A DNA stretch of 61,384 nt from Clostridia bacterium (GTDB taxonomy: Bacteria; Bacillota; Clostridia; UMGS1883; UMGS1540): contig JAZOQG010000011.1 of NCBI GenBank assembly GCA_045656005.1, forward strand, positions 1 through 61,384, written 5' to 3'. Below are positions 7,039 to 41,894 of the stretch, in pieces. The stretch's first letter is position 1. Each line of letters starts with the position of its first letter. The position numbers and the translations under genes were made by a program. Below the pieces are notes generated by a model, which worked only from the letters and a program-made list of their open reading frames with translations, had not been told where the DNA came from and did no database searches.

Positions 7039-8210
7039 GTATTTTTCAGTCATTTAAACTTGCAGTAAAAAGCCTTGCCTCCAGTAAAATGCGTGCGTTT
7101 TTAACGATGCTCGGCATAATTATAGGTATTGCGGCTGTAATATCTCTCGTATCTCTGATGAGCGGAATGACAAATGAGATTGTTTCTTCTTTTGAAAGCA
7201 TGGGTGTTACAAACCTTACCGTAAACGTTATAGGCAGAGGCGGAAATATTCAGGTATCAACGAGTGACTTGCAGGAATTTGTTGATGAAAATGCCGAACT
7301 TTTTTCAGGCATGACCCCGACCGTAACAGTGCCCGCAACAGTTAAAAAAGGAGCAGAGTCTTTAACTTCAACCTCTGTTTCAGGTGTAAGCGATGCTTAC
7401 GACGAAATAAATTCGAAAGAGGTTACAAGAGGAAACTTTTTAACTTATATTGATGTTGAAAGAAGTCAGCGAAACTGTGTTATAGGCACCTATGTTGCAA
7501 GAAGCTTTTTTGGTATGAAAAATCCTCTGGGCGAGAAAATCAAAATAAATGGTAACGGTTTTACAGTTGTGGGAGTGCTTAAGGAAACTGCCGAAAGCGA
7601 AGAGGGAAGCGATGATGATAAAATCTTAATCCCATACACAACCGCACAGAAAATTGCCTATACAAGAGCTAATACATACACGGTTTCCGCAATGACAAAG
7701 GATGATGTGTCGGCGGCAAAAGAAAAACTGGAAGGGTTTCTTTATGAAAAACTTGGAAATGATAAACTCTATACAGTTATTGCCTTAAGTGAAATTACCG
7801 ATACTTTAAATGATATGCTCGGCAAAATGTCTCTCCTGCTTGCAGGGATTGCGGCAATTTCCCTTCTTGTAGGAGGAATTGGCATTATGAACATAATGCT
7901 CGTGTCCGTTACGGAGAGAACAAGGGAAATAGGCATAAGAAAAGCACTTGGCGCAACCCCTTGGGATATACTTAGTCAGTTCGTGGTAGAAGCACTTACT
8001 ACAAGTGCCATAGGCGGAATAATAGGCATTTTTGTCGGAATATTTATGGCAAATGCCATGGGCAACATGATAGGAATAAAAGCGGCAATTTCTGTATCGG
8101 CAATAGTAATTTCTGTTTCCGTTTCCGCAGGAATAGGTGTAATATTCGGCTACCTTCCTGCAAAGAAAGCCGCAAAACTTAACCCAATCGATGCACTTCG
8201 TTACGATTGA
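7035..8210 (+). CDS. MacB/FtsX-type ABC permease
   Basis: RAFLTMLGIIIGIA, GGIGIMNIMLVSVTERTREIGIRKALGA, LNPIDALRY. Confidence 0.95.
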   Translation: MSIFQSFKLAVKSLASSKMRAFLTMLGIIIGIAAVISLVSLMSGMTNEIVSSFESMGVTNLTVNVIGRGGNIQVSTSDLQEFVDENAELFSGMTPTVTVPATVKKGAESLTSTSVSGVSDAYDEINSKEVTRGNFLTYIDVERSQRNCVIGTYVARSFFGMKNPLGEKIKINGNGFTVVGVLKETAESEEGSDDDKILIPYTTAQKIAYTRANTYTVSAMTKDDVSAAKEKLEGFLYEKLGNDKLYTVIALSEITDTLNDMLGKMSLLLAGIAAISLLVGGIGIMNIMLVSVTERTREIGIRKALGATPWDILSQFVVEALTTSAIGGIIGIFVGIFMANAMGNMIGIKAAISVSAIVISVSVSAGIGVIFGYLPAKKAAKLNPIDALRYD

Positions 8211-8224
8211 TTTTAGGAGGAATT

Positions 8225-12548: not shown

Positions 12549-14972
12549 CTACTGTTTTTCTATGCTCCACTTATCGTCTTTAAATACGATTTTTATGCTG
12601 TCGCCTTCCGAAACATTGCCTTCAAGCATTTCATTTGCAAGCATATCTTCTATTTTTGAAGATATAGCCCTTCGAAGAGGTCTTGCACCATAAGTGATGT
12701 CAAAACCTACTTCTGAAATTTTTTCAATAGCACTGTCGTCAAACTCTGCCGTGATGCCATTTTGAAAAAGTCTTTCTTTAAGAGAGGAGAGCATAAGTGA
12801 TGCAATTTCCTTTATATCATCTTTTCCCAGACGGCTAAAAACAATAATATCGTCAATTCTGTTTAAGAATTCAGGACGGAAAGTGCGTTTAAGCTCTGCT
12901 AAAACATCATTTTTTATTGCTTCCTGCTGCTCGCCTTGAGAAGACTCGCCAAAGCCTAAGTGCTTTCGGCTTGTAATGTCTCGGGCTCCTACATTTGATG
13001 TCATAATTATAATTGTGTTTCGAAAATCCACACGTTTTCCCTGCGAATCAGTCAGGATACCATCGTCAAGTATCTGCAAAAGAATGTTAAATACGTCAGG
13101 ATGAGCCTTTTCAATTTCGTCAAAGAGGAGTACTGAGTAAGGCTTCCTTCTTACTTTTTCAGTAAGTTGTCCACCCTCATCAAAACCCACATATCCCGGA
13201 GGTGAGCCTACAAGTCTTGAAACAGAATGTTTTTCCATGTATTCTGACATGTCAATTCTTATCATAGCATCATCGTCACCAAAAAGTGCAGATGCTATAG
13301 CCTTTGAAAGCTCTGTCTTACCAACACCTGTGGGACCCAAGAAAATAAATGAGCCTATTGGGCGCTTGGGGTCACGCAGTCCCACTCTTCCGCGTCTTAT
13401 CGCTCTTGATACAGAGGATACTGCCTCGTGTTGACCTATTACACGCTCGTGCAAAATGTTTTCAAGATTTAAAAGCCTTTCGCCTTCTTCCTGACAAAGA
13501 CGCTGAGCGGGAACTCCTGTCCAGGATGAAACGATTGCTGCAATATCCTCTTCTGAGATTTCAGATTTTGTAACTGCACGTTCTTTTTGCCACTGTTCAT
13601 TAAGCGAGGAAAGAGTTTCTGTAAGATTTTTTTCTTCGTCACGAAGTTTTGCCGCTTTTTCAAATTCCTGATTTTCTACCGCACTGTCCTTTTCCTTTTT
13701 GAGGGTTGCAATTTTTTCTTCCGTTTCCTTGATTGATGGGGGAGCGGTAAGGGTCGTAAGACGTGCACGCGATGCCGCTTCGTCAATTAAATCAATCGCT
13801 TTGTCAGGGAGAAAACGGTCCGTGATATATCTTTGTGAGAGCTTTACTGCGGAAGAAATTGCCGCATCAGTAATTTTTATTCCGTGATGAGCTTCGTATT
13901 TGTCTCTTATGCCCTTTAAAATTTCAATAGCCTCTTCCTCTGTTGGCTCGTTTACATTAACGGGCTGAAATCTTCTTTCCAAAGCCGCATCTTTTTCTAT
14001 ATATTTTCTGTATTCAGAAATTGTTGTAGCACCTATAACCTGCATTTCGCCTCTTGCAAGGGATGGTTTTAAAATGTTGGAAGCGTCAATAGCACCTTCT
14101 GCCGCACCTGCACCGACTATTGTATGCATTTCGTCAATAAAAAGGATAACATTTCCCGATGCAGTTACCTCATCCATTGCTTTTTTGAGGCGGTCTTCAA
14201 ATTCGCCACGGTATTTTGCACCTGCAACCATTGATGAAAGGTCAAGTGCAAATACTCGTTTGTTCTTTAAAACTTCAGGAATGTCGCCCGCCACAATTCT
14301 CTGTGCAAGTCCTTCAACAACTGCGGTTTTTCCGACACCCGGCTCACCTATAAGACAGGGATTATTTTTTGTTCTTCTCGATAAAATCTGAACAACTCGT
14401 TCAATTTCTTTATCTCTGCCGATAACAGGGTCAAACTTGCCGTCTGCGGCACTTTTTGTAAGGTCGCGTCCGAATTGATTTAATGTGGGAGTGTCTTTTC
14501 CGCCTTCGCTTTTTTGTGAAGCGGTACCCTTTGATGAAATGTGCTTTAAAATTTCTTCGTAAAGAGCCTGACTGCTTATGCCAAGCTCTGATAAAACTGC
14601 AACTGCAACAGAACTTCCCTCTTTGATTATTGCAAGGAGAAGATGCTCTGTTCCAATAAGTGAGCTTCCGCTTTTCCCGGCTTCAAGTAATGCAATCTCT
14701 AAAATTTTCTTGCTTCTTGGGGTAAATCCTGTCAATGTAACTAAGGCACCTTCGTTTGTTTCAACAAGCTGACGCACCTTTTCCAAAACTTTATCTTCTG
14801 TAACACCAAACCCTGATAAAACCTCAGCGGCAACTCCGCTTTCTTCTCTTATGAGTCCTAAAAGCAGATGCTCTGTTCCTATATAATTGTGACCAAGCTC
14901 CATAGCCGAGCTTTGAGAAAGCCTTAAGGCAGTAGCTGCTTTGTCAGTAAATCTTTCTTCAAAGTTGTTCAT
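12549..14972 (-). CDS. clpC: ATP-dependent Clp protease ATPase ClpC
   Basis: Clp N repeats, two AAA+ modules ([16 protein letters not shown]), UVR coiled coil; in the ctsR operon. Confidence 0.97.
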
Positions 14973-15961
14973 TTTATCACTCCTTTAATAATTTCTGCCC
15001 TTTTTATGTCACGCTTTTCAGCATTGTTTTCCTTTAAATGACAGGGTGAAGTTTCAATCCATAATTTTTTAAGTTTTAATAAATCTGTTTCCAAAAGACC
15101 GAGATAGTGCCCAAGCCTTACAAGGGATTGTAAACTCAAAAATTCACTTGTGCTTATCATGAAAGCTGAGCTTATTATCCCGTTGGCTCTTAAAATTTTG
15201 TCTTTAAGCTGAGAAGAAATGTTTTCCTTCATTTTTTCTCTTAAATTTCCTTCTGCACTTATTATCATATCCATAATCTGGGAAAATTTATCAAGAATAT
15301 CTTTTGCGTTTACACCCAAAGTTATCTGGTTTGAAATCTGAAAAATATTTCCCGGTGCATCACTGCCCTCACCATAAAAGCCTCGAACAGTCATTCCCTC
15401 GTTTGCACATTCTCTTAAAAGCTGGGGGATAGCTCCCGAAAGGGAAAGTGCAGGCAAATGCATCATTGCAGAGATACGCATTGCAGTTCCGCAGTTCGTG
15501 GGGCAGGAGGTTAAATATCCATATTTTTCGTGGTATGCAAATTTAAGGCGTTCTCTTAAAAGAGCATCGATTTTTCCGGCGGTGTCAAGCGTTTTTTCGC
15601 TGTCAAGTCCTGCAGCAAAGCATTGAATTCTTATGTGGTCCTCCTCATTTATCATAATAGAAACCGACATGTCCTTTGACACTAATGCAATCCTTTTAAG
15701 GTGAGAAGGCTTAAATGCAGGCGAAATCAGATGCTTTTCTATAAGGCTTCCAATAGTAGCCTCATCAGTTTTTTCAAGGTCATAAATGTCGTAGTCGGAT
15801 ATAATTGGCTTTATAGCATCGAGCACCATGTCCGAAACAGCAACACTTTGTTCACGGCTCATAGAAGACGGGAAATTAATTCCCGCTATGTTTCTTGCAA
15901 GACGGACCCTTGTGGAAAAAACATATTCGTCTAAAGTCCCCTTTTCCTGATACCAGCTCAT
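14969..15961 (-). CDS. mcsB: Protein arginine kinase McsB
   Basis: [27 protein letters not shown]; operon position. Confidence 0.93.
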
Positions 15962-16398
15962 TGTGATCCTCCTTCCAAAGAACGTATTTCGTCGCGAAGC
16001 TCAGCTGCTTTTTCAAAGTTTTCGCACTCTATTGCATCACGAAGCTCTATTTTTAATTTGTCAAGCTTTGAAGGAACAGAAGTCATGTCACCTTTGTGGC
16101 TTGAGGTTTTATGAATTTTTTTAAGAATACTTTCAACAGAATCTGAGAAAGCGCCATAACAGTCAGGACATGCAAATCTTCCCGTTTTCCTGTAAAAGTC
16201 AAAATCGTGTTTGCATGTAGGGCACACGGCTTTTTGAGTACTCTTTGATGGAGGAGCGAAGAACGAGAAAAAGTTCCCGCTTACAATTCCTTCTTCTCCT
16301 GCACAAATAGGGCAGAGAAATATTTCTTTCACACTTCCGTTTATGTTTTGTTTAAAGTGAACAGTTGCAGTATTTTTTTTGCATTTTTCACAAAGCAT
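15958..16398 (-). CDS. mcsA: McsA (UvrB/C motif zinc protein)
   Basis: MLCEKC...LCPICA...CPTC...CPDCY and C-terminal ENFEKAAELRDEI; start placed at 16398 by SD. Confidence 0.92.
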   Translation of the reverse strand: MLCEKCKKNTATVHFKQNINGSVKEIFLCPICAGEEGIVSGNFFSFFAPPSKSTQKAVCPTCKHDFDFYRKTGRFACPDCYGAFSDSVESILKKIHKTSSHKGDMTSVPSKLDKLKIELRDAIECENFEKAAELRDEIRSLEGGSQ

Positions 16399-16412
16399 TA
16401 ATATCATCCTTT

Positions 16413-16859
16413 CTAAATTAAGTTTGCGAGCATGTTTTTGAAAATAACAGCTCTTATAGTGTCGCATACATTTCTTGGAAACGGCAGAGATTTTGAAGAT
16501 ACTGCCGCCAGCATTATTTTAAGTTCGCGTTCTGTTATGTGACCGTACTCGTACATGTTTGAGGCTATTGCCTTTGCAGACTGAAAATCAAGTGTGTTTC
16601 CAATACTGTTTATAACGTGCATAATATATTCGTTTTCAGGAACGGATATGCGTGAAATTCTTACAAATCCGCCGCCGCCACGTCTGCTTTCAACAATGTA
16701 TCCGCGCTCCGTTGTAAAACGGGTTGAGATAACATAGTTTATCTGGGAGGGGACGCACCCGAAATATTGAGCCAAATCGTTTCTTCCTATTTCAACTTCT
16801 CCGCTTTCTTCTTCAAGTAGTTTTATTATAAATTTTTCTATTCCGTCACTTAGTTTCAT
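16413..16859 (-). CDS. ctsR: Class III stress gene repressor CtsR
   Basis: LSDGIEKFI...FGCVPSQINYVISTRF...ESRRGGGGFVRI. Confidence 0.95.
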   Translation of the reverse strand: MKLSDGIEKFIIKLLEEESGEVEIGRNDLAQYFGCVPSQINYVISTRFTTERGYIVESRRGGGGFVRISRISVPENEYIMHVINSIGNTLDFQSAKAIASNMYEYGHITERELKIMLAAVSSKSLPFPRNVCDTIRAVIFKNMLANLI

Positions 16860-18030: not shown

Positions 18031-18095
18031 ATTCTAGCATAATAGTGACAAAACGTCAATAATTTGTTGACAAAACAAAATTAAAATGGTATTAT
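18031..18095. promoter_or_regulatory. Back-to-back sigma-A promoters
   Basis: Minus TTGACG-17-TAGAAT (18059-18031); plus TTGACA-17-TATTAT (18067-18095). Confidence 0.65.
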
Positions 18096-18118
18096 TTCGG
18101 TTGAAGGGAGTGTTTTTA

Positions 18119-19618
18119 ATGTTTGAAAAGGTAACCCCCGAAAGGGTGGGTGTTTCATCGGAACACGTTAAAAAATATATAGAGCTTTTGGAAAAAGCAA
18201 ATCTTTCAACACATAATGTGGTAATGATAAGACATGGTAAAATTTTTTATGAGGCTTACTGGAAGCCTTTTCATAAAGATTTTTTACATAGAATGTACTC
18301 TGTTTCAAAAAGTTTTGTGTCAATTGCGATAGGACTTTTGGCAGGAGACGGTCTTATAGACCTTGATGCACCCATGGTTTCATATATTGACGAGTCTTAT
18401 ATAAAAAACGCAAATAAATATGTAAAAAAGCAAACAATCCGTGATATGCTTATGATGTGTACGGGTTATCCAAAAGAACAGGTGGCATTTTTCCGCCGTA
18501 AACCTGAGGACAGACTTTTGGATTATTTCGACAGCTCATCTTCTGATGGTTATGTAGCGAGTTACCCTGGCTCGATTTTTTCTTATGACAGTCACGGCTC
18601 TTTTGTACTTGGCGCAATAGTGGAAATTGTTACGGGCAAAAAACTTATGGACTTTTTGAGAGAACGTATATTTGATAAAATCGGAGTTTCCAAAGAGGCT
18701 TATTGTCTTACATGCCCCGGCGGTCATTCATGGGGCGACAGTGCAGTTTTGTGTAAGGCACGCGACCTTGCAAAAATGTGTCAGTTTATGCTCCGGCAAG
18801 GTGAGTGGGAAGGCGAGCAGCTTCTTGATAAGAATTATGCAGAGAAAGCCACCTCAAATCTCGTTTCAACCGATCAGGTCGGTCACCTCATTCCAGGAGC
18901 TTATGGTTATGGTTATCAGTTCTGGAGAACAAGAAACAATAGCTTTTACTTCAATGGCATGGGCTCGCAGTATGGCATATGTATCCCCGATAAGGATATG
19001 ATATTTGTAGTAAATTCCGATAATCAGGGGCATCCAAGACCTGATATGGTAATTATCGACCGCTTTTTTGAAGAAATAGTTGAAAAAGCGAAGGATGAGC
19101 CATTGCCGGAAAATAAAGAAGCTTATGATGCAATATGTGAAATGGCAGAAAACCTTGAGCTTTTTTCGCTTAAAAATGAGATAACTCAAAATTTTTCAGA
19201 TAAAATAAACGGCAAAGAATATAGACTTGAAGAAAACCCGATGGGTATTACGAAAATGAAGTTTACATTTGAAAATAATGAAGGAAAGCTTGAATATACA
19301 AATGCACAGGGAGATAAAACTATTTATTTCGGAATAGGAAAAAATGTTTTCGGAAAATTTCCGCAGGAAGGGTATGCAGATGATGTTGCAACAAAGTTTG
19401 CACCCGGAAATTATTATGATTGTGCCGCATCCGCTTTCTGGAGTCACGAAGACTGCCTTACAATGCTTGTTCAGATTATTGATAAGTATTTCGGCAGACT
19501 TCATGTCCGCTTTGCGTTTAAAGAAAACGGCGAAAAAATAGTTTTGTTTATGGATAAGATAGCAGAAGATTTTCTTTCGGAATATGAAGGATATGCAGAA
19601 GGCATTGCTGTAAATTAA
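18119..19618 (+). CDS. Serine hydrolase, beta-lactamase/PBP-like fold
   Basis: YSVSKS (SxxK), FSYDS, YGYGYQFW, GMGSQ; no signal peptide. Confidence 0.85.
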   Translation: MFEKVTPERVGVSSEHVKKYIELLEKANLSTHNVVMIRHGKIFYEAYWKPFHKDFLHRMYSVSKSFVSIAIGLLAGDGLIDLDAPMVSYIDESYIKNANKYVKKQTIRDMLMMCTGYPKEQVAFFRRKPEDRLLDYFDSSSSDGYVASYPGSIFSYDSHGSFVLGAIVEIVTGKKLMDFLRERIFDKIGVSKEAYCLTCPGGHSWGDSAVLCKARDLAKMCQFMLRQGEWEGEQLLDKNYAEKATSNLVSTDQVGHLIPGAYGYGYQFWRTRNNSFYFNGMGSQYGICIPDKDMIFVVNSDNQGHPRPDMVIIDRFFEEIVEKAKDEPLPENKEAYDAICEMAENLELFSLKNEITQNFSDKINGKEYRLEENPMGITKMKFTFENNEGKLEYTNAQGDKTIYFGIGKNVFGKFPQEGYADDVATKFAPGNYYDCAASAFWSHEDCLTMLVQIIDKYFGRLHVRFAFKENGEKIVLFMDKIAEDFLSEYEGYAEGIAVN

Positions 19619-22788: not shown

Positions 22789-22983
22789 ATGAATTTTGTT
22801 ATAGACAGATTTGAAGGAGAATGGGCAATACTTGAAGGAGAAAACAAAGAAATTTATAAATTTTCCGCATCTGCGCTTGAAGATTTTAAAGAAGGCGATG
22901 TTATTGCAATTTTAAAAGATGAGAATGAAATAAACAGAAGGAAAGATAGTATTAAAAGTCTATCTGATGAGCTTTTTGAGTAA
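22789..22983 (+). CDS. DUF3006-like small protein
   Basis: VIDRFEGEWAILE...KEGDVI; usual partner of the ComEC-like gene. Confidence 0.8.
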   Translation: MNFVIDRFEGEWAILEGENKEIYKFSASALEDFKEGDVIAILKDENEINRRKDSIKSLSDELFE

Positions 22984-23051
22984 AATCCCCCCTTTATTAA
23001 ATTTTAATATAAATTTTTTTAAAAAAATTTAATTTATTTCTACTTTGCCAC

Positions 23052-23080
23052 TTGAACTTTTATAAAAATTATGGTAAAAT
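23052..23080 (+). promoter_or_regulatory. sigma-A promoter of carAB, followed by a ~140-nt leader
   Basis: TTGAAC-17 bp-TAAAAT with TG extension. Confidence 0.6.
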
Positions 23081-23224: not shown

Positions 23225-24292
23225 TTGGAAAAGGCGGCTTATTTAGTCTTGGAAAACGGTAAAATTTTTAAGGGCAAGTTTTTTGGCGTTCCTAAAAATG
23301 TGCTTGGCGAAGTTGTTTTTACTACTTCTATGAATGGTTATATTGAAACTTTGACAGACCCGAATTATTTCGGTCAGATTGTTGTTCAAACATTTCCTTT
23401 GATTGGGAACTATGGTGTTATGGAAAGTGACGTTGAAAGCAGTAGTGTTAAAGTAGCGGCTTATATTGTTAAGAGTTTGTGTGAAGTCCCCTCGAATTTC
23501 AGAAGTGAGGGCGCACTTGACACTTTTTTTAAGGAAAAAAATGTGACGTGCCTTTCGGGAATTGATACTCGTGCACTCACAAAGACCATTCGTGAATGTG
23601 GCAGCTTGAATGGCTTGATAACCGATAATATTGATAATATAGATTTCGGAAAAGTTAAATCCTATAAAATAGAAAATGTAACAGAAAGCCTTTCGACCAA
23701 GGAAATATATTCTGTAGGCGAAGGCAAAAAAAATGTTGTAGTTTATGATTTTGGTGTAAAAAACAGCATTGTAGATGTGTTTAAAAACAGAGGGTATAGA
23801 GTTTACGTAGTACCTTTTGATACACCTGCTAAGGAAGCACTTGAGCTTAATCCTTCGGGAATAGTATTTTCAAATGGTGGCGGAAACCCATGTGATAATA
23901 AAGTTTCTGCTGAAATTGTAAAAGAACTTTTTGAAAGCGGTATCCCGATGCTCGGTATCAGCCTCGGTCATGAGATTATGGCACTTGCAAACGGTTTTGA
24001 ATGTGAAAAACTTAAATATGGTCATCACGGTGCAAATATCCCCGTTAAAGATGCAGAAAGTGACAGAGTTTATATAACAAATCAGAATCACCTTTATGCA
24101 GTTTCTGCAAACAGTATTAAAAGCGATATAGCTGATGTTATTTTCTATAACGTTAACGATAAATCATGCGAAGGTCTTCGCTATAAAAATGCTCCTGCAA
24201 TTTCTGCGGAGTTTTATCCCGACAGTGCCGGTGGGCTTTGCGATACAACCTTTGTATATGACAAATTCTTTGATATGATGGAGGGAAGATAA
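23225..24292 (+). CDS. carA: Carbamoyl-phosphate synthetase small subunit with degenerate glutaminase site
   Basis: GEVVFTT, LTDP, PLIGNYG, QNH present; GISLGHE replaces GICLGHQ and EFYPD replaces QxHPE. Confidence 0.92.
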   Translation: MEKAAYLVLENGKIFKGKFFGVPKNVLGEVVFTTSMNGYIETLTDPNYFGQIVVQTFPLIGNYGVMESDVESSSVKVAAYIVKSLCEVPSNFRSEGALDTFFKEKNVTCLSGIDTRALTKTIRECGSLNGLITDNIDNIDFGKVKSYKIENVTESLSTKEIYSVGEGKKNVVVYDFGVKNSIVDVFKNRGYRVYVVPFDTPAKEALELNPSGIVFSNGGGNPCDNKVSAEIVKELFESGIPMLGISLGHEIMALANGFECEKLKYGHHGANIPVKDAESDRVYITNQNHLYAVSANSIKSDIADVIFYNVNDKSCEGLRYKNAPAISAEFYPDSAGGLCDTTFVYDKFFDMMEGR

Positions 24293-27200
24293 TGCCGCTT
24301 AATAAGAATATTAAAAAAGTTTTGGTTATAGGCTCCGGCCCTATTGTTATAGGTCAGGCGGCTGAATTTGATTTTGCTGGGACACAGGGTTGCCGAGCAA
24401 TAAGAGAAGATGGAATTGAAATCGTACTTCTCAACTCAAACCCTGCAACAATTATGACAGATAAGTCAATGGCTGACAGAATTTATATCGAGCCTATGAC
24501 TCTTACTACCGTTAAAAGAATAATCCAGAAAGAAAAACCCGATAGTATTTTGTCAGGTCTTGGCGGACAGACAGGACTTAATCTTTGTATGCAGCTTGCA
24601 AAAGAAGGTTTTCTTGAGGAAAACGGTGTAACACTTTTGGGTGTTTCTCCCGAAACTATAGATAAAGCTGAGGATAGACAGCTCTTTAAAGACACAATGG
24701 AAAGCATAAATCAGCCCTGTATTCCTTCAAAGGTTGTAACTGATGTTGAAGCTGCCTTGGAATTTGCAGAGGAGATAGGCTATCCCGTAATTGTTCGTCC
24801 TGCATTTACTTTGGGCGGTACAGGTGGCGGTATTGCAGATGATGCGGCACAGCTTTCTGAAATTGCAAGCGTAGGTCTCTCGCTTTCTCCTATTACTCAG
24901 GTACTTATTGAGAAATGTATTTCAGGCTGGAAAGAAATCGAATTTGAAGTAATGCGCGACAGTGCAGGAAACGCTATAACAGTATGCTCAATGGAAAACT
25001 TTGACCCTGTTGGTGTTCATACGGGCGACAGTATAGTTGTAGCACCAGCGGTAACACTTTCACCCAAAGAATATCAGATGCTTCGTACAGCCGCACTTGA
25101 CATAGTTTCGGCACTTGGAGTTGAAGGAGGATGTAACTGTCAGTTTGCACTTCATCCTGAGTCTTTTGAATATGCAGTTATCGAGGTAAACCCCAGAGTT
25201 TCCCGTTCTTCTGCTCTTGCATCAAAGGCAACAGGATATCCTATAGCAAAGGTTGCAACAAAGGTTGCAATAGGCTATCGCCTTGACGAAATTGTAAACT
25301 CCGTTACAGGAACCACTTATGCGGCGTTTGAGCCTGCAATAGATTATATTGCAGTTAAATTCCCGAAATGGCCGTTTGATAAATTTGTTTATGCAAAGAA
25401 AGAACTCGGCACACAGATGAAGGCAACAGGCGAGGTTATGTCTATTGATGATAACTTTGAAGGTGCACTTATGAAGGCAGTTCGTGGCGCAGAAATTGGA
25501 ATTGACACACTCAATTTCAAAGGAATGGATAAGAAAAGTGAAGAAAAACTTTTCAATATGATTAAAAAACCTACAGATTTGCGTCTTTTCGCTGTGTATG
25601 AAGCATTAAAAAGAGGTATTACACCCGAAAAAATCAATGAAATCAGTAAAATTGATAAATGGTTCCTTTATAAACTTTTGAATATTGTAAATTACGAAAA
25701 ACAACTTGGCGGTGAGGTTTCCGAGGAAATGTATTTCGAGGGTAAAAAACTCGGCTTCCTTGATAGTACAATCGGAAAAAGCTATGGTGCAAAACCAAAT
25801 TATAAAATGGTTGATACATGTGCATGTGAATATGCTGCAACAACCCCATATTTCTATGCTGCTTACGATAAGGAAGAAGCAGGCGGAATTAATGAGGCAG
25901 TTGACTTTAAGGATAAAAACGGCAAGAAAACAATTCTTGTACTCGGTTCTGGTCCTATAAGAATCGGTCAGGGAATTGAGTTTGACTACGCATCTGTTCA
26001 CTGTATTGAATCCCTTCAGAGAATGGGCTATGAGGTTGCAATCATCAATAATAATCCCGAAACCGTTTCAACAGATTTTGATACGGCTGACCGTCTTTAC
26101 TTCGAGCCACTTTGCGGTGAAGATGTAATGAACATCATAAACTTTGAAAAACCAGAGGGTGTTGTTGTTGCGTTCGGCGGCGGAACTGCAATTAAACTTA
26201 CAAAGCTTCTCAGTAAAAATAATATTCCGATTTTAGGAACATCTGCTGACAGCATTGATGCGGCAGAGGACAGAGAAAGATTTGAACAGCTTCTCGAAAG
26301 CCTTAATGTAAAAAGACCGAAAGGCTTTTCTGCAATGACTACCGAGGAAGCTCTTGCAATCGCAAATAAAATCGAATACCCCGTTTTAATCCGTCCTTCA
26401 TATGTTTTGGGCGGCCAGAACATGATTATCGCTTATGACGATAATGATATCAAAGAGTACATGGAAATTATCTTGAGACAAAAACAGGAAAATCCGATAC
26501 TCATTGATAAATATATAAACGGATATGAAATAGAAGTTGATGCAATTTGTGACGGAGAGGATATTTTAATTCCCGGTATCATGGAGCATATTGAAAGAAC
26601 AGGTATCCATTCAGGGGACTCCATTGCAGTTTATCCTCCGCAGAATATTGATGACTCTATTGCAAATGACATTTTTGAAACAACAAAGGCTATTTGCCTT
26701 GGACTTGGAGGCATCGGTCTTGTAAATATCCAGTATATCGTAAAAGATGGCGAGATTTATGTAATCGAGGTAAATCCTAGAGCATCAAGAACAGTTCCAT
26801 ATATGAGCAAAATCACAGGTATTCCAATGTGTGATATTGCAATGCTTGTTTCCCTCGGCACAAAGCTTCGTGATACAGAGTATGGTATCGGCCTTTATAA
26901 AACCTCTGCATATACAGCCGTTAAAGTGCCTGTGTTCTCTTTTGAGAAACTTACAGACGTTGATACTCAGCTCGGTCCTGAAATGAAATCAACAGGTGAG
27001 GTTTTGGGTATCGGCAAAAATCTTGAAGAAGCACTTTATAAAGGGCTTCTAGGTGCAGGCTATAAGATGTCAAAAACAGGCGGTGTGTTCTTAACTGTTC
27101 GTGACAGTGATAAAGATGAAATCGGTGATATTGCCGAGAAATTCAGCCAGATGGGATTTTTGCTTTATGCAACTGCAGGAACTGCAAGAGTTCTTGAAAA

Positions 27201-28320
27201 AATGGGACTTCGTGTAAAGGTTGTAAATAAAATTCACGAAAGTGAAGATAATTCAATGACACTTCTTGATAGCGGAAGTATCAAATATATTGTTTCAACC
27301 TCCAAAAAGGGAAGAGACCCGGTTCGTGACAGTGTTAAGATAAGAAGAAAAGCAAGCCTTCTCGGAATACCATGCCTTACTTCTATTGATACTGCAAATG
27401 CTCTTGCAAATACTCTTATGAGTAAATACAGTGAAATTAACACAGAGCTTGTTGATATAACTCACCTTCGTGCAGAAAAAATAAATCTTAAATTTACAAA
27501 GATGCAGGGCTGCGGAAACGATTATATTTATATTGATTGCTTTAAGCAGACAGTAAATTCACCTGAAAATCTCTCAGTATTTCTCACAGACCGTCACTTC
27601 GGAATAGGCGGTGACGGAGTTGTGCTTATCTGCCCTTCGGAAGTTGCAGATGCAAAAATGAGAGTGTTCAATGTTGACGGAAGCGAAGGAGAAATGGCAG
27701 GAACTTCCATAAGATGTGTCGCAAAATATCTTTATGATAATAAAATGGTGAATAAAGATACAGTAACGGTTGAAACTAAAAGCGGGGTTAAAACCTTAAA
27801 GCTTAAAACCGTTGGCGGACTTGTTTCAAGCGCACAGGTCAATATGGGACTTCCAACATTCAGCCCCAAATCTATTCCGATGAATGTTGAAGGGGAAACA
27901 GTTATAAATAAAAAAATTGAAGTTTGCGGAAAAGAATATGAAGTAACCGCACTTTCCTTTGGAAATCCTCATGCAGTAGTGTTTATGGATAACTCTGAAA
28001 AAATTGAAGTTTCAAAAATCGGACCGCAGTTTGAAAACTGCCCCATTTTCCCTGAAAAGGTTAATGCGGAATTTGTTCAGGTTCTCGATAATAAGACACT
28101 TCGCGTATCCGTATGGGAGAGAGGAAACGGGGAGACACTCGCCTGCGGAACAGGAGCATGCGCAGCAGTAGTTGCGGCAGTAATGTGCGGACATTGCGAG
28201 AAAAACAGCGATATTAAGGTTATGCTTTTGGGCGGAGAACTTACAATCCGCTACACAGACGAGGGAGTGTTTATGACAGGACCTTGCGAAAAAGTATTTG
28301 AAGGTATTGTAACAATCTAA
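24292..28320 (+). CDS. carB: Carbamoyl-phosphate synthetase large subunit fused to a C-terminal DapF-fold domain
   Basis: GSGPIVIGQAAEFD, two ATP-grasp units, MGS domain, then in frame LKFTKMQGCGNDY...GIGGDG...GNPH...WERGNGETLACGTG from ~27481. Confidence 0.93.
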   Translation: MPLNKNIKKVLVIGSGPIVIGQAAEFDFAGTQGCRAIREDGIEIVLLNSNPATIMTDKSMADRIYIEPMTLTTVKRIIQKEKPDSILSGLGGQTGLNLCMQLAKEGFLEENGVTLLGVSPETIDKAEDRQLFKDTMESINQPCIPSKVVTDVEAALEFAEEIGYPVIVRPAFTLGGTGGGIADDAAQLSEIASVGLSLSPITQVLIEKCISGWKEIEFEVMRDSAGNAITVCSMENFDPVGVHTGDSIVVAPAVTLSPKEYQMLRTAALDIVSALGVEGGCNCQFALHPESFEYAVIEVNPRVSRSSALASKATGYPIAKVATKVAIGYRLDEIVNSVTGTTYAAFEPAIDYIAVKFPKWPFDKFVYAKKELGTQMKATGEVMSIDDNFEGALMKAVRGAEIGIDTLNFKGMDKKSEEKLFNMIKKPTDLRLFAVYEALKRGITPEKINEISKIDKWFLYKLLNIVNYEKQLGGEVSEEMYFEGKKLGFLDSTIGKSYGAKPNYKMVDTCACEYAATTPYFYAAYDKEEAGGINEAVDFKDKNGKKTILVLGSGPIRIGQGIEFDYASVHCIESLQRMGYEVAIINNNPETVSTDFDTADRLYFEPLCGEDVMNIINFEKPEGVVVAFGGGTAIKLTKLLSKNNIPILGTSADSIDAAEDRERFEQLLESLNVKRPKGFSAMTTEEALAIANKIEYPVLIRPSYVLGGQNMIIAYDDNDIKEYMEIILRQKQENPILIDKYINGYEIEVDAICDGEDILIPGIMEHIERTGIHSGDSIAVYPPQNIDDSIANDIFETTKAICLGLGGIGLVNIQYIVKDGEIYVIEVNPRASRTVPYMSKITGIPMCDIAMLVSLGTKLRDTEYGIGLYKTSAYTAVKVPVFSFEKLTDVDTQLGPEMKSTGEVLGIGKNLEEALYKGLLGAGYKMSKTGGVFLTVRDSDKDEIGDIAEKFSQMGFLLYATAGTARVLEKMGLRVKVVNKIHESEDNSMTLLDSGSIKYIVSTSKKGRDPVRDSVKIRRKASLLGIPCLTSIDTANALANTLMSKYSEINTELVDITHLRAEKINLKFTKMQGCGNDYIYIDCFKQTVNSPENLSVFLTDRHFGIGGDGVVLICPSEVADAKMRVFNVDGSEGEMAGTSIRCVAKYLYDNKMVNKDTVTVETKSGVKTLKLKTVGGLVSSAQVNMGLPTFSPKSIPMNVEGETVINKKIEVCGKEYEVTALSFGNPHAVVFMDNSEKIEVSKIGPQFENCPIFPEKVNAEFVQVLDNKTLRVSVWERGNGETLACGTGACAAVVAAVMCGHCEKNSDIKVMLLGGELTIRYTDEGVFMTGPCEKVFEGIVTI

Positions 28321-28327
28321 AACAATC

Positions 28328-28561
28328 AGGGGATGTTAAAAATTCCCAGAGCACAAAAAGGCAATAGTTTTTATTGGCATTGTAAATTTAAAAAACATTA
28401 AAGTAACTACATTTTGTAGGGAAATCTCATAGCATGAGATTTCCCTGAATTTTTAAGCCTTTTTGCTACGAACAAACTTCACCTCTCGCTGTATAACATA
28501 CAGCTTCGGGTAACCCCTGCGGGTTCAGTTTGTCCGTTCTGAAACTTTTTTCCTATCCCCT
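28328..28561 (+). mobile_element. MITE-like dispersed structured repeat, copy 2
   Basis: Homologous to 2201-2419; TIRs AGGGGATnnnAAAAA; same AGGGAAATCTCA/TGAGATTTCCCT hairpin. Confidence 0.7.
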
Positions 28562-28579: not shown

Positions 28580-29320
28580 ATGTTGCGCAATTATAAAGAA
28601 GAAACCGAAAAAAGAGTAAAATTTATAAAAGACACACTTGAAAGTGCTCACGCAAAAGGAATTGTTTTCGGCAACAGCGGTGGAAAAGACTGTGCACTCG
28701 TGGGAATACTTTGCAAAATGGCATGCGAGGATACGGTGGGAGTAATTATGCCCTGCTCTTCAAGACGAAACTATGAAGAGGACATGCGTGACGGTATGGA
28801 GGTTGCAGAAAAATTCGGCATCGAAACAAGAGTTGTTGATATAACGGATGTGAAGGAAAAATTCCGAAGGATACTTGAAGGTAAGACCATGCTTTCTAAG
28901 ATGGCAGACACAAATATAAATCCACGTCTTCGTATGACTGTGCTTTATGCCATAGGTGCATCGGAAGGTAAACTTGTAGCAGGAACAGGTAACAGAAGTG
29001 AGCGATATATGGGCTACTTTACAAAGTGGGGTGACGGAGCTTGTGATTTAAATCCCATTTCCGACCTTACAGTTAAGGAGGTTTATGAATTTTTAGAATA
29101 CCTTGGAGCACCCGAGGCTATTATGACAAAAGCCCCTTCTGCCGCGCTTTTTGAAGGACAGAGTGACGAAGAGGATATGGGAATAAAATATGCCGATATT
29201 GATAAATTTTTGCTTACAGGCGAAATATCCGATGAAAATCGTGAGATTATAGAAAGATATAATAAAGGAAGCCGTCACAAGGTCAGAATGCCTGCGGTGT
29301 ATAGAGAAATTAATGAATAA
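28580..29320 (+). CDS. nadE: NH3-dependent NAD+ synthetase (no glutaminase domain)
   Basis: SGGKDC, NINPRLRM, GTGNRSE, GYFTKWGDG, PSAAL...DEEDMG; 246 aa. Confidence 0.92.
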   Translation: MLRNYKEETEKRVKFIKDTLESAHAKGIVFGNSGGKDCALVGILCKMACEDTVGVIMPCSSRRNYEEDMRDGMEVAEKFGIETRVVDITDVKEKFRRILEGKTMLSKMADTNINPRLRMTVLYAIGASEGKLVAGTGNRSERYMGYFTKWGDGACDLNPISDLTVKEVYEFLEYLGAPEAIMTKAPSAALFEGQSDEEDMGIKYADIDKFLLTGEISDENREIIERYNKGSRHKVRMPAVYREINE

Positions 29321-38174: not shown

Positions 38175-39479
38175 TTAATCGTGAAGTTTTCTCTTGTCGA
38201 TAACTCTTACTGCCTTGCCTTCGCTTCGCTGGATGCTCTTTGCAGGAACAAGATGAACTTTGGGATTTATACCAAGCATTGTTTTAATTGCACCTGCCAG
38301 TTCTTTTTCTTTTTTCTCAAGCTCACGAACTGTGTCGGAAAGCTGCTCTGATGTAATTTCAACATTAATATCAAGAGTATCTGTGTTGTTAACACGGTCT
38401 ACTTCAATCTGATAATTTGGAGTATATCCCTGCTCCAGGAGAACGGTTTCAATCTGTGACGGGAATACGTTAACACCACGGATAATCATCATGTCATCAC
38501 TTCTTCCGAGAGGCTTTGTCATTTTAACTAAAGTTCTTCCGCATGAGCATTTTTCTCTTGATAAAATGCAGATATCTCTCGTTCTGTAACGAAGAAGAGG
38601 GAATGCTTCTTTTGTAATGCTTGTAAATACAAGCTCACCTTTTGAGCCTTCTGGCAACACTTCACCTGTTTCAGGGTCTATAATTTCAGCAATAAAGTGG
38701 TCTTCGTTTATGTGCATACCGCTTTGGTCTGAACATTCAAACGCAACACCCGGACCGCTTGTTTCAGTAAGCCCGTAAATATCATAGGCCTTTATGCCAA
38801 GTGATGCTTCGATGTCACGACGCATTGCCTCTGTCCAAGGCTCTGCTCCGAAAATACCAGCCTTAAGACTGATATCTTCTGGAGTAAGTCCCATTTCTTT
38901 TAAGGTTTCGCCTATGTAAGCCGCATAAGAGGGTGTGCAGCAAAGTATTGTGGAGCCTAAATCCTGCATAAACTGAATTTGACGCTCAGTGTTACCTGAG
39001 GACATTGGCAAGGTAAGGCAGCCTACCTTATGTGATCCGCCGTTAAGACCTGCACCGCCGGTAAAAAGACCAAAACCGTAAGCTACATGGCAAACATCGT
39101 CTTTTGTACCGCCTGCGGCAACAATAGCTCTTGCACAGCAATCGTCCCAAAGGTCAATATCGTGCTGAGTGTAAAATGCAACTACTCGCTTTCCTGTTGT
39201 ACCCGAAGTGGAGTGAATTCTCACACACTCGGAAAGAGGTTTCCCCAAAAGTCCGTAAGGATAAGCCTCTCGCAAATCCGCTTTTGTTAAAAACGGGAGC
39301 TTGTGAAGGTCGTCAACAGATTTTATGTCGTCAGGAGTAACACCTTTTTCGTCCATGAGATTTTTATAGTATGGTACATTTTCGTAAACATGCTTTACCT
39401 GTGCGATAAGTCTTTCACTTTGGAGTGTGCGCATTTCTTCCCTTGAGGCGCACTCCATTTTTTCGTTCCAATAATTCAT
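38175..39479 (-). CDS. paaK: Phenylacetate-CoA ligase family protein
   Basis: HSTSGTTG, YGLFTGG, GAEPW, YGLTE, RYRTRD, GRSDDM, GVNVFPSQIE. Confidence 0.92.
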   Translation of the reverse strand: MNYWNEKMECASREEMRTLQSERLIAQVKHVYENVPYYKNLMDEKGVTPDDIKSVDDLHKLPFLTKADLREAYPYGLLGKPLSECVRIHSTSGTTGKRVVAFYTQHDIDLWDDCCARAIVAAGGTKDDVCHVAYGFGLFTGGAGLNGGSHKVGCLTLPMSSGNTERQIQFMQDLGSTILCCTPSYAAYIGETLKEMGLTPEDISLKAGIFGAEPWTEAMRRDIEASLGIKAYDIYGLTETSGPGVAFECSDQSGMHINEDHFIAEIIDPETGEVLPEGSKGELVFTSITKEAFPLLRYRTRDICILSREKCSCGRTLVKMTKPLGRSDDMMIIRGVNVFPSQIETVLLEQGYTPNYQIEVDRVNNTDTLDINVEITSEQLSDTVRELEKKEKELAGAIKTMLGINPKVHLVPAKSIQRSEGKAVRVIDKRKLHD

Positions 39480-39496
39480 TTTAATACTTCCTTCCT

Positions 39497-40063
39497 TCAA
39501 CTTCTGTAACCAAGTTCAAATGCCTTAAGGTTTACCTCTAAAAATTTAGGGGGAACAGTTTTCTGAATAGCTTCAATAAATGCATCTTTTGGAATATCGC
39601 TGTTTGCAGCGAGTGCACCGATTAAAACAACGTTTACAGCCTTTTCGTTTCCTGCCTCTCTTGCAAGTGATAAAGCATCAATAGCATTAAGAGAAATTCC
39701 CATACCCTCGATTTTTTCCAGAATATTTTCAGGGTACTCCATAGCGCCTGTGATTACGGGCATGGGGTCGGTTTTTTGTGTGTTTACAAGGAGTTTTCCG
39801 CCTTTTTTAAGATATGAAAGTGAACGGTATGCTTCAAGCTGTTCAAAGGCGAGCAAAATATCAGCATCGCCTATGGAAACTATTGGAGAATTTACTTTTT
39901 CTCCGTACTTAACATATGTTACAACACTTCCGCCTCGCTGACTCATTCCGTGAACTTCTGAAACTTTAACATCAAAACCCTGTGCGGTTGCAACAGCACC
40001 GAGGATACGGCTGGCAAGCAAGGTACCCTGACCGCCAACACCAACAATAACTATATTACTCAT
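39497..40063 (-). CDS. iorB: Indolepyruvate:ferredoxin oxidoreductase beta subunit
   Basis: GVGGQG, SEVHGMSQRGGSV. Confidence 0.92.
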   Translation of the reverse strand: MSNIVIVGVGGQGTLLASRILGAVATAQGFDVKVSEVHGMSQRGGSVVTYVKYGEKVNSPIVSIGDADILLAFEQLEAYRSLSYLKKGGKLLVNTQKTDPMPVITGAMEYPENILEKIEGMGISLNAIDALSLAREAGNEKAVNVVLIGALAANSDIPKDAFIEAIQKTVPPKFLEVNLKAFELGYRS

Positions 40064-41799
40064 TATTTCTCCTCCTTTGATATTGCACCGAATTTGCAGA
40101 TGTTCATGCAAAGTCCGCAACCGTTGCAAAGTGTAGAGTCAACTAAAACTTGGCCTTCACGGAAACTTAAAGCGGGACATCCTATCTTCATGCACATTTT
40201 GCATTTTTTACATTTTTCGTTGTCTATTACCGCAAGACCCGTAAGTTTAACGCTTTTTAAGAGTGCACATGGGCGCTGTGCAATAATAACGGAGGGCTCG
40301 TCTTTTGAAACTGCCTCTTTTACAACCTTTTCAAACTCGTCAACATCAAATGGGTCTGCAACTTTGATGTGGTCAATTCCGCACGCACGGCAAAGCGCCT
40401 CGAGGTCAACCTGACGTGTTGCTTCTCCCTTTAGTGTTTTGCCCGTTGTGGGGTTATCCTGATGTCCTGTCATACCCGTGATTGAGTTGTCAAGAATGAT
40501 AACAGTTGATGTACCTTTGTTATATACTATGTCAATAAGACCTGTAATTCCCGAATGCATAAATGTGGAGTCGCCTATAATTGCAACAGTTTTGCCTGCA
40601 ATCTCTCTTCCACCTGCCATTTCCATACCGTGTGCCATGGAAACACTTCCGCCCATGCAAAGACATGTGTCAAGGCTCTGCAAGGGAGCTAAGGCGCCAA
40701 GAGTGTAGCAACCGATGTCACCGCAAACCCTGAGACCGAGTTTCTTAAGAACATAGTGCATACCTCTGTGAGGACAACCGGGGCAAAGTACAGGGGGACG
40801 CATTGGAGTTTCCTCGTCAGCCTTGTCAAAAGGCTCAACTTCTTTTCCGAAAATCTTTTCCGCAATCATTTCGGAACTATATTCTCCTAAAAGTGAAAGT
40901 TTATCTTTTCCGTGAACTTCAATGCCAAGTGCTTTTACATGGTTTTCAATAATCGGGTCAAGCTCTTCTATTACATAAAGCTCGTCGACATTTTTTGAAA
41001 ATTCAATTATTAAGTCTGTGGGGAGAGGGAACACCATACCGAGCTTTAAAAAACTTGCACAGGGACATGCCTCTTTCGCATACTGATAGCAGTCACCTGC
41101 GGCAATAATACCAATTTTCTTGTCGCCGTATTCAATTTTGTTAATCTCGTTTGTGTTTGCAATAGCAATAAGGTCATCTGTGCGTTTTTCAACGAGTACG
41201 TGTCTGCCTCTTGCCATTGCAGGCATCATAACATATTTCATTGCATCTTTTTTGTATTCTTTTAAAGATGCATCCTGTCTTTCGCATTCCTCGACAAGGC
41301 TCTGTGAGTGAGCAATTCTTGTTGTAAGACGAATAAGTACAGGAGTGTCAAATTTTTCGCTTATTTCGTAAGCCTTCTTAACATAATCCTTACATTCGCT
41401 GCTGTCAGAAGGCTCGAGCATCGGGATTTTTGAAGCACGCGCATAGTGACGGCTGTCCTGCTCGTTTTGTGATGAGTGCATACCGGGGTCATCTGCAACA
41501 CAAATTACAAGCCCTCCGTTTACACCAGTATATGAAGCAGTAAAAAGTGGGTCTGCGGCAACGTTTAATCCAACGTGCTTCATGCAGCTCATACTTTTTG
41601 CACCTGCAACAGATGCACCAACTGCAACCTCAAGCGCAACCTTTTCGTTTGGTGCCCATTCAGCATATATTTCGTCATATTTTGCGGCAAACTCGGTAAT
41701 TTCCGTGCTGGGGGTACCGGGATAAGACGCCATGACAGTAGCCCCTGCTTCGAAAGCACCCCTTGCTATGGCCTCGTTGCCAAGCATAAGTCTTTTCAT
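40063..41799 (-). CDS. iorA: Indolepyruvate:ferredoxin oxidoreductase alpha subunit
   Basis: GNEAIARG, YPGTPSTE, MKHVGLNVAAD, CPGCPH, GDIGCY, GDSTF, C-terminal ferredoxin. Confidence 0.93.
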   Translation of the reverse strand: MKRLMLGNEAIARGAFEAGATVMASYPGTPSTEITEFAAKYDEIYAEWAPNEKVALEVAVGASVAGAKSMSCMKHVGLNVAADPLFTASYTGVNGGLVICVADDPGMHSSQNEQDSRHYARASKIPMLEPSDSSECKDYVKKAYEISEKFDTPVLIRLTTRIAHSQSLVEECERQDASLKEYKKDAMKYVMMPAMARGRHVLVEKRTDDLIAIANTNEINKIEYGDKKIGIIAAGDCYQYAKEACPCASFLKLGMVFPLPTDLIIEFSKNVDELYVIEELDPIIENHVKALGIEVHGKDKLSLLGEYSSEMIAEKIFGKEVEPFDKADEETPMRPPVLCPGCPHRGMHYVLKKLGLRVCGDIGCYTLGALAPLQSLDTCLCMGGSVSMAHGMEMAGGREIAGKTVAIIGDSTFMHSGITGLIDIVYNKGTSTVIILDNSITGMTGHQDNPTTGKTLKGEATRQVDLEALCRACGIDHIKVADPFDVDEFEKVVKEAVSKDEPSVIIAQRPCALLKSVKLTGLAVIDNEKCKKCKMCMKIGCPALSFREGQVLVDSTLCNGCGLCMNICKFGAISKEEK

Positions 41800-41894
41800 C
41801 CATAACACCTCTGGTTTCTTAAGTATTGTATAACTACTATATTATATCACTGTTTTTTTGCCTTGTAAAGAAAAAACTAAAAAAAGCGGGAAAA

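Follow-up and report, generated by a model that had tools for sequence, protein, structure and literature searches.

The contig JAZOQG010000011.1 of a Clostridia bacterium (61,384 nt, analysed over its whole length and called the window here) carries a carB gene, for the large subunit of carbamoyl-phosphate synthase (CPS), that is fused in frame to a domain with the fold of diaminopimelate (DAP) epimerase, DapF. The first of the two catalytic cysteines of this domain is replaced by alanine. We read the domain as a DapF-derived, non-epimerising pseudoenzyme, probably ligand-binding, carried on a functional CarB in a cell whose meso-DAP is supplied elsewhere, and we give this reading a probability of about one half. 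In the scheme that we propose, the ancestor would have been a real bifunctional CarB-DapF that arose in a nitrogen-assimilation operon (carA-carB-dapF-dapL/pyrG/nadE) when carB lost its stop codon. The fused domain would then have lost the thiol of Cys73 in the lineage of the window and in at least nine others, with the additional loss of Asn75 in the window, and LL- and meso-DAP would no longer be interconverted at a useful rate. The fold, the second cysteine, His159, and the whole distal DAP site are held by purifying selection as strong as that on neighbouring enzymes, and the domain would most likely still bind DAP or a close analogue in a non-epimerase role, regulatory or structural. The meso-DAP of the cell would come from another gene, either a free-standing dapF as in related genomes, Ddh, or DapF2.

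The proteins of the window were compared with the Pfam and NCBIfam profile libraries, with cut-offs of 599 bits for PRK05294, 114.65 bits for TIGR00652, 221 bits for PRK12838, and 365 bits for TIGR03542. Homologues were collected with the MGS-linker-DapF segment as the query, the best 120 matches being used, and by a scan of GTDB species genomes with a DapF alignment, which gave at least 80 loci, each from a separate assembly (best listed match, 62% identical). The family alignment of 202 DapF domains (195 non-redundant) was drawn from both listings, and all family counts below are among the matches listed. These domains were divided by their Cys73 equivalent into Cys-bearing (n = 151) and Cys-less (n = 51) sequences. 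Residues were numbered as in the Haemophilus influenzae enzyme through alignment to Escherichia coli DapF (b3809). The features of the carA-carB region, including the single open reading frame (ORF) of the fusion, are as follows.

23225 to 24292, + strand: carA, glutamine-amidotransferase small subunit of CPS (PRK12838, 408 bits).
24292 to 28320, + strand: carB::dapF', a single ORF of 1342 amino acids with no internal stops.
24292 to 27426, + strand: CarB portion, residues 1 to 1045 (PRK05294, 1445 bits; TIGR01369, 1416 bits).
27427 to 27489, + strand: junction, residues 1046 to 1066, the natural CarB C-terminus (..NTELVDITHLRAE) and then about five residues.
27490 to 28320, + strand: DapF-fold domain, residues 1067 to 1342, and the stop codon (TIGR00652, 272-277 bits, match to residues 1067 to 1340).
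27697 to 27708, + strand: altered first catalytic motif, A1136-G-T1138-S1139, aligned with the canonical C-G-N-A/G.
27958 to 27960, + strand: Phe1223 in SFGNPH, where Met is canonical and is found in 97% of the Cys-bearing relatives.
28108 to 28128, + strand: S1273-V-W-E-R-G-N1279, with Ser1273 (28108-28110) in place of the Arg of RVWERG and with Glu208 and Arg209 retained.
28144 to 28152, + strand: retained second catalytic motif, C1285-G-T, equivalent to Cys217-Gly218-Ser/Thr219 (Cys1285, TGC at 28144-28146).

The carA stop and the carB start overlap by 1 nt. The CarB portion is complete, with two ATP-grasp halves, an oligomerisation domain, and an MGS-like allosteric domain (Pfam CPSase_L_D1/D2/D3 and MGS), and both the full-length equivalog match and the adjacent carA place it in the CarB family. 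The downstream domain gave a full-length family-model match and has the two-domain DAP_epimerase fold of DapF, with two DAP_epimerase repeats and matches to DapFs of the PDB at E = 7e-77. The bifunctional DapF/glutamate racemase model NF038284 scored 110-115 bits, below its cut-off of 350, and the Pfam scan gave no Pro_racemase match for the window protein. A sequence-only reading of this DNA had described CarB running into a DapF-like sequence without a stop, which the ORF and the Pfam and NCBIfam domain matches bear out, and every coordinate that it gave for EMAGTS, Ala1136, Cys1285, and SVWERG was right.

The motifs FTKMQGCGND, GIGGDG, GNPH, and ETLACGTG are all present in the domain. The first catalytic motif, however, reads EMAGTS from residue 1134; Ala1136 (GCA, 27697-27699) occupies the position of Cys73, and the first catalytic thiol is missing. 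Thr1138 aligns with Asn75, and Ser stands at residue 76. According to the description of the binding site in PMC8225329 (citing Pillai 2006), the carboxylate of the reacting centre is held by Gly74, Asn75, Gly218, and Ser219 and its amino group by Asn11; the same description assigns the distal carboxylate to Asn64, Asn157, Asn190, and Arg209 and the distal amine to Glu208. The cradle of the reactive centre is incomplete in the window, where Asn11, Gly74, Gly218, and Thr219 are present and Asn75 is replaced by Thr1138. Asn64, Asn157, Asn190, Glu208, and Arg209 of the distal site are intact in the window and in both relatives of its clade (see below), and Cys217 and His159 are also retained in the window. 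From the residue roles and the alignment, the domain has lost two residues of its reactive centre and retains a complete distal recognition site.

At 74 columns that are near-invariant (at least 95% conserved) in the Cys-bearing sequences, the window departs four times: C73A, N75T, M to F in SMGNPH, and R to S in RVWERG. None of the 151 Cys-bearing relatives deviates at Cys73, Gly74, Asn75, or the Arg of RVWERG (100% conserved), and Asn11, Asn64, His159, Asn190, Glu208, Arg209, Cys217, and Gly218 are also invariant across them. Asn1279 corresponds to residue 211, which is Ser in canonical relatives. Cys-to-Ser and Cys-to-Ala variants of the DapF enzyme class have <0.1% of their activity left (PMC8225329). 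The missing thiol and Asn75, the activity of such variants, and the relaxation of the catalytic shell described below together suggest that the epimerase activity has been lost. Cys1332 (TGPCEKVF) was considered as a compensating thiol and rejected, since the same Cys is found in Cys73-bearing neighbours such as P0113. A thiol relocated to residue 211 (S211C), considered for some lineages, does not apply to the window, which has Asn there, and residue 211 is one of several relaxed positions.

The loss of Cys73 is a recurrent property of the fused form. The Cys73 equivalent was absent from 50 of 148 fused domains but from only 1 of 47 free-standing domains (Fisher p = 2e-6; sequence counts are not independent events), the lone free-standing case being P0002. 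For the listed loci of GTDB genomes alone, the corresponding figures were 13 of 41 fused and 0 of 37 free-standing domains. The 13 Cys-less fusions of these genomes are L022, L026, L030, L034, L036, L042, L052, L063, L065, L068, L072, L076, and L078, and the other 28 are Cys-bearing. On neighbour-joining trees built with the motif columns masked, parsimony mapping placed at least 10 independent Cys73 losses, all on fused branches, and none on the free-standing branches, which account for 40% of the branch length at risk. Position 73 was taken over by G (26), A (12), S (9), F (3), or N (1). The pocket residues were kept in 92-100% of cases in the Cys-less sequences, and further losses occurred solely in these sequences: Cys217 to Ser (7), Gly218 to Glu (3), Arg209 to Pro/Ala (3), and Asn157 to Ala/Gly (3). 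Such heterogeneous replacements, together with further active-site losses, are expected from a loss of catalysis and not from a new defined chemistry.

The residues around the active site changed along with the thiol. At the 74 near-invariant columns, the Cys-less sequences departed 5.2 times on average, compared with 0.64 times for the Cys-bearing sequences; 93% of these columns were nevertheless retained in the Cys-less domains. The positions changing almost only on Cys-less branches were Met 61, 63, 73, 161, and 210 (domain numbering), the Asn11-adjoining Tyr16/Tyr18, Asp46, Gly162, and residue 211, which goes from Ser to Asn or Cys. At the position of Phe1223, parsimony counted 18 changes on Cys-less branches and 4 on Cys-bearing branches. 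Substitutions in the shell were mostly conservative (M to I/V/L, Y to F, and D to E). This pattern marks a relaxation of constraint on residues connected with catalysis and not a redesign of the active site.

We also compared the rate of evolution of the Cys-less domains with that of the intact domains. At matched CarB divergence, the divergence of the DapF domain was approximately equal in pairs with Cys-less sequences and in Cys-Cys pairs (0.414 and 0.399, respectively, at a CarB distance of 0.25-0.30, for example); faster evolution of the Cys-less domains, expected under simple decay, was not observed. The ratio of nonsynonymous to synonymous substitution rates (dN/dS) was calculated pairwise by the Nei-Gojobori method within the Cys-less trio formed by the window and its relatives P0001 and P0002. 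It was 0.10-0.11 for the domain in all three comparisons, 0.10 for nadE, and 0.03 for the CarB C-terminus, values that are approximate because dS was near saturation (1.5-1.8). All 11 remaining pocket residues were invariant in the trio, compared with 64% of all columns (chance ~0.008), and N75T was shared by the three members. A structure prediction, suggested as a check in the sequence-only reading, was made with AlphaFold2 (AF2) for the isolated domain and for the MGS-DapF two-domain segment. The isolated domain gave a confident closed DapF fold, with a predicted local distance difference test score (pLDDT) of 92 and a predicted template modelling score (pTM) of 0.90, and superposed best on ligand-bound DapFs (9mro, template modelling score [TM] 0.93; 3ejx, TM 0.92). 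Loss of the domain by a stop codon at the junction, although harmless to CarB, was seen in no lineage, which argues that the domain is kept for a reason. As in pseudoenzymes, an essential catalytic residue is gone with the fold conserved, and purifying selection continues after the loss.

The fusion itself is real and widespread. Nearly all of the best 120 homologues were MGS-DapF fusions, from assemblies of Oscillospiraceae, Ruminococcus, other Clostridia, and Treponema. Full-length fused ORFs (1300-1500 amino acids) were found at 41 of the 80 listed GTDB loci, and cultured isolates with the fusion include Yeguia hominis, Ruminococcus sp. FC2018, and Neglectibacter caecimuris. Among the matches listed, well over 100 independent assemblies, from Oscillospirales-type Clostridia and from Treponema, contain the fusion, and the alignments show a junction that is in frame and conserved across the fused homologues. 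Many relatives hold a vestigial dapF start Met after the CarB C-terminus, at a position where the window has Ile; this Met indicates that the fusion would have arisen by simple loss of the carB stop codon. Most fused relatives keep both cysteines. An assembly or sequencing error as the source of the fusion or of the Ala codon has a negligible probability: the in-frame junction recurs in the independent assemblies, isolates included, the Cys-to-Ala change takes two base changes and comes with three other departures, and the AGT-type motif (EMAGTS/EMSGTA) is present in two independent ENA samples. The two adjacent changes, Asn to Thr and Gly/Ala to Ser, are independent of that from Cys to Ala. 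Strain-specific drift, which the sequence-only reading had also allowed for, does not hold either, with EMAGTS in an unrelated ENA contig and Cys loss in 34% of fused domains. What that reading had overlooked is that the fusion is old and common, mostly two-cysteine and often next to dapL; tabulation of Cys73 across the fusions identifies the window as a degenerate member of this family and not as a one-off.

The closest relatives of the window, 74-75% identical in the domain, are P0002 (contig L001), which has EMAGTS, and P0001 (contig L087), which has EMSGTA. They come from two unrelated ENA samples, and the gene order of the P0001 contig, carB::dapF'-nadE, is that of the window. P0002 is free-standing: on its 1086-bp contig, 179 nt of AT-rich non-coding DNA and a ribosome-binding site precede MIQFTKMQG. 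This arrangement, known from one weak contig of ~1x coverage, implies that the Cys-less domain secondarily split off from CarB. The AGT-motif clade of the window is rare, being represented by P0001 and P0002 alone among the 120 best-scoring homologues listed, and a metagenome pattern scan for DGSEGEM[A/S]GT gave 0 matches. At the 5' end of the P0001 contig (L087:1-90), an in-frame stop and non-CarB sequence lie ahead of PVFSFEKL; an artefact of the contig end or of chimeric assembly is the probable cause, not a truncated carB.

The genes around these loci differ between Cys-bearing and Cys-less forms. dapL lies directly 3' of the fusion at 12 of 27 Cys-bearing loci (TIGR03542, 514 bits) and at 0 of 14 Cys-less loci, counts that are not phylogenetically independent. 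DapL is LL-diaminopimelate aminotransferase, which makes the DapF substrate, and for this reason the Cys-bearing fusions next to dapL are very probably true bifunctional enzymes. By contrast, no DAP-pathway gene was found in the 61-kb window, where the genomic link of a DapF to its pathway is missing. At two Cys-less loci (L052 and L072, ~4000-10000), the fusion is part of an argD-argF-carA-carB::dapF' arginine operon, which ties their CPS to arginine synthesis and not to DAP or the nitrogen-assimilation cluster. The free-standing relatives P0113 and P0115 lie in nitrogen-assimilation clusters with an ANTAR regulator, glnA, gltBD, purF, pyrG, nadE, an aminotransferase, and asnB, and the same genes recur at fused loci. 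In a wider view of the cluster in relatives (L002:6855-16447; L006:3035-14012; upstream of carA in many of L007-L086), an ANTAR response regulator, glnA of types I and III, gltBD, and purF were accompanied by carA, pyrG, guaA, nadE, dapL, and asnB. Nearly all of these encode glutamine- or ammonia-using enzymes, and the cluster suggests a common ANTAR-controlled regulon.

Three genomes carry a fused and a nearby free-standing dapF together: an Acutalibacter metagenome-assembled genome (MAG; L053:10001-11725), N. caecimuris (L025:7329-10819), and an Oscillospiraceae MAG (L081:3965-10831). The two copies are 0-6 kb apart, with a gap of 28 nt in L053, and both keep both cysteines. They belong to separate orthologous groups, so the duplication is old. 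The Cys-less fusions L034 and L078 are close relatives of these genomes, and this kinship shows a plausible route of two copies followed by loss of catalysis in the fused one. For the genome of the window, we infer another route to meso-DAP. Clostridium thermocellum, according to what Hudson et al. 2011 are said to have found, has both DapL and Ddh. Routes that bypass DapF are common in gut bacteria: the Ddh variant is present in 643 of 2856 genomes, and DapF2 also exists (PMC9026213). In E. coli, dapF is dispensable for growth, and a weak side activity covers its loss (bioRxiv 10.1101/2024.10.14.618325).

The domain was then set beside known systems. The two-cysteine CarB-DapF fusions of Oscillospirales and Ruminococcus (Y. 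hominis NSJ-40, L015; Ruminococcus sp. FC2018, L020; R. bicirculans, P0083) have the same architecture and junction and an upstream carA, and they are part of the same set of nitrogen-assimilation genes, among which nadE, pyrG, an ANTAR regulator, and glnA lie close by. Their identity to the window is 74% in CarB and 55-63% in the DapF domain; they keep Cys73, Asn75, the Arg of RVWERG, and often dapL (12 of 27), all of which the window lacks. Canonical DapF (EC 5.1.1.7; Bacillus anthracis 2OTN, cyanobacterial 9MRO, H. influenzae 1BWZ/2GKE, and E. coli b3809) shares with the window the fold (TM 0.93), the second Cys, His159, Asn11, Gly74/Gly218/Thr219, and the distal Asn64, Asn157, Asn190, Glu208, and Arg209. 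The window differs from it in C73A, N75T, M to F in SMGNPH, R to S before VWERG, and Asn at 211, as well as in its fusion to the CarB C-terminus and in having no DAP-pathway neighbour. Engineered DapF C73S/C73A (PDB 2Q9H; Cys-to-Ser mutants of Mt-DapF and PddB) are thiol-less at the same position with the fold preserved (structure search rank 9). These mutants, with <0.1% activity, were made in the laboratory, whereas the change in the window occurs in nature, is recurrent, and comes with second-shell changes under selection.

In the trans-3-hydroxy-L-proline dehydratases of the proline-racemase family, one catalytic Cys has given way to a conserved Thr with a catalytic role. They belong to the same fold superfamily as the window domain, and in them the natural loss of one of two cysteines changed the function. 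Their similarity to the window domain is lower (TM 0.69-0.77; identity 12-16%), and the conserved Thr contrasts with the varied A/S/G/F/N of the Cys-less domains. No dehydratase-type substrate is evident for the window domain, which falls outside that family. A precedent for a DapF fold that works by protein binding is E. coli DapF, which activates RppH through non-catalytic protein binding (PMC6061791; 6D13 among the structure matches). Unlike the window domain, E. coli DapF is unfused and still serves as an enzyme with both cysteines in place, and its partner is a Nudix hydrolase, not CPS.

Several observations weigh against a DAP-binding pseudoenzyme domain that acts on CarB. The binding of a DAP-like ligand, in a regulatory or structural role, is suggested by the selection that has kept the fold and the distal ligand site, that is, from conservation only. 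In the AF2 model of MGS and DapF, the single domains were confident, but pTM was 0.63, with no evidence of a fixed interface, and pLDDT was lower at the junction; this result speaks neither for nor against allosteric coupling in the complete (alpha-beta)n enzyme. A free-standing EMAGTS protein, P0002, exists, and together with the lack of a confident MGS docking it argues against any role for which a covalent link to CarB is indispensable. Neither the 61-kb window nor the ~10 kb around 13 listed GTDB Cys-less fusions holds a second dapF, ddh, or dapF2. The fused copies of L025, L053, and L081 keep the Cys despite their long-standing free-standing paralogues, which argues that redundancy alone does not force the loss. 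The near-saturated dS (1.5-1.8) and the use of neighbour-joining trees with parsimony mapping also temper the evolutionary argument, and the retained Cys217, His159, and Glu208 with the repeated change of Ser211 to Asn or Cys fit a one-thiol enzyme equally well.

Such an enzyme, with the Cys217 equivalent as its sole base and a DAP-like substrate for beta-elimination, dehydration, deamination, or isomerisation, is an unlikely but serious alternative, which would have a parallel in the Cys-to-Thr hydroxyproline dehydratases of the proline-racemase family. It would account for the invariance of Cys1285, His159, Glu208, and the whole distal site in the window clade, for a dN/dS of ~0.10, as for a real enzyme, for an N75T change that is clade-specific and common to all three members, and for the repeated change of residue 211 to Asn or Cys almost only on Cys-less branches. 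The free-standing variant P0002 means that the domain can work without CarB, and dehydratases occur in the same fold superfamily (structure search ranks 31-40). C73A/C217A mutants of the H. influenzae enzyme reportedly eliminate hydrogen fluoride from 3-fluoro-DAP (work ascribed to Koo et al. 2000), which would favour such chemistry; to our knowledge, however, no natural beta-substituted DAP occurs in Clostridia. Moreover, the replacements at position 73 (G/A/S/F/N) do not converge on a catalytic residue, Cys217 is itself lost in seven Cys-less lineages, and the conservative, scattered changes of the shell look as relaxation is expected to look and redesign is not. No new conserved gene neighbourhood hints at a substrate at the fused loci examined. 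If, on the other hand, the domain were a neutral relic, decaying after redundancy and persisting through its attachment to an essential gene, active-site erosion in the Cys-less lineages only and a loss confined to fused copies would be expected, as found. We nonetheless consider a relic rather improbable, given that at least 10 lineages keep the full length even though one junction stop would remove the domain harmlessly, that dN/dS is ~0.10 and the rate relative to CarB is unchanged, that 93% of the near-invariant columns are retained, that the AF2 fold is confident, and that P0002 is an intact free-standing copy.

It is more improbable still that the domain remains the DAP epimerase of the cell, with water or another residue standing in for Cys73 or with a low but sufficient rate. 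In its favour, the domain has an undamaged fold, distal site, and Cys217, the window contains no second dapF gene, and the survival of E. coli after dapF loss through a weak side activity means that little activity may do. Yet Cys-to-Ser variants are <0.1% active, Ala provides no acid/base, and Asn75 is lost too; Cys73 is present in 100% of the 151 relatives and in every free-standing DapF of the listed genome set; once Cys73 is lost, drift sets in at second-shell positions that active enzymes keep fixed; and dapL adjoins no Cys-less locus (0/14). A broader proposal, that the Cys-less module is a new functional class repeatedly born from a CarB-fused epimerase, either as a sensor of DAP or diamino acids that acts on carbamoyl-phosphate supply or as a one-thiol enzyme with new chemistry, is tentative and somewhat doubtful. 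In that case, the AGT/Asn211 module of the window clade would be autonomous enough to occur free-standing. The statement of the sequence-only reading that this is not a normal epimerase stands, as Cys73 and Asn75 are replaced and the shell is free to vary; the CPS sensor and the lyase or deaminase that it suggested are candidate functions. Of the functions proposed, a sensor or pseudoenzyme domain fits best.

Literature searches found no paper on a CarB-DapF fusion and no report of recurrent, fusion-specific loss of the first Cys under continued purifying selection. Public database entries for the fusion already exist, labelled inconsistently as either "carbamoyl-phosphate synthase large subunit" or "diaminopimelate epimerase", and the fusion belongs with the DapF family, pseudoenzymes, and Rosetta-stone fusions and is not a new category. 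An exact-sequence search with the fused protein of the window gave no record. Pathway tools that credit any TIGR00652 match would mis-score lysine/meso-DAP prototrophy for approximately one-third of the organisms that carry the fusion. The family also offers a natural series for the origin of a pseudoenzyme after gene fusion, with active and disabled forms in one family, at least 10 losses, and a defined shell that relaxes. If the domain does bind DAP and modulate CPS, it would be an unexpected effector input to a textbook allosteric enzyme, and such a sensor would link the status of cell-wall and lysine precursors to carbamoyl-phosphate supply. A one-thiol activity, should the domain have one, would extend the chemistry known for DapF-type enzymes.

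Downstream of the fused gene, two further features were identified.

28417 to 28447, + strand: terminator-like hairpin with a 14-bp stem and then a T-run, which closes the carA-carB::dapF' transcription unit ahead of nadE.
28580 to 29320, downstream of the hairpin: nadE, by library match, with sigK also downstream.

Upstream, a small ORF (MNFVIDRFEGEWAIL...) at 22790-22984 precedes carA and is followed by an AT-rich region. From a promoter-like site (23052-23080) to the carA start runs a leader of ~145 nt. Rfam gave no riboswitch or leader family over the whole window, nor in the carA leader at a permissive E of <=1, and the leader therefore gives no regulatory clue toward Arg, pyrimidine, or Lys.

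The rest of the window, with a GerA receptor, McsB/ClpC, S-layer homology (SLH) proteins, and 38% GC, marks it as the chromosome of spore-forming Clostridia. A class III stress operon is located at 12549-16859 (- strand), with an mcsA-like gene (15958-16467; UVR and zinc ribbon), mcsB (14969-15961), which encodes an ATP:guanido phosphotransferase, and clpC (12549-14972); a 148-amino acid ORF upstream (16413-16859) may be ctsR. In three large proteins of 750, 763, and 1021 amino acids (8207-10459, 47119-49410, and 54955-58020), SLH repeats are the sole recognised domains, the remainder of each having no Pfam match. An indolepyruvate-type 2-oxoacid:ferredoxin oxidoreductase (TPP/POR subunits and a 4Fe-4S domain) is followed by a PaaK-like AMP-forming ligase at 38175-41808 (- strand), which suggests an aromatic amino-acid fermentation module. 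Finally, a 510-amino acid serine hydrolase with a beta-lactamase fold is encoded at 18086-19618. Its best NCBIfam match was 3-succinylated cholic acid synthase (169 bits against a cut-off of 800), and the apparent resemblance is at the family level only.

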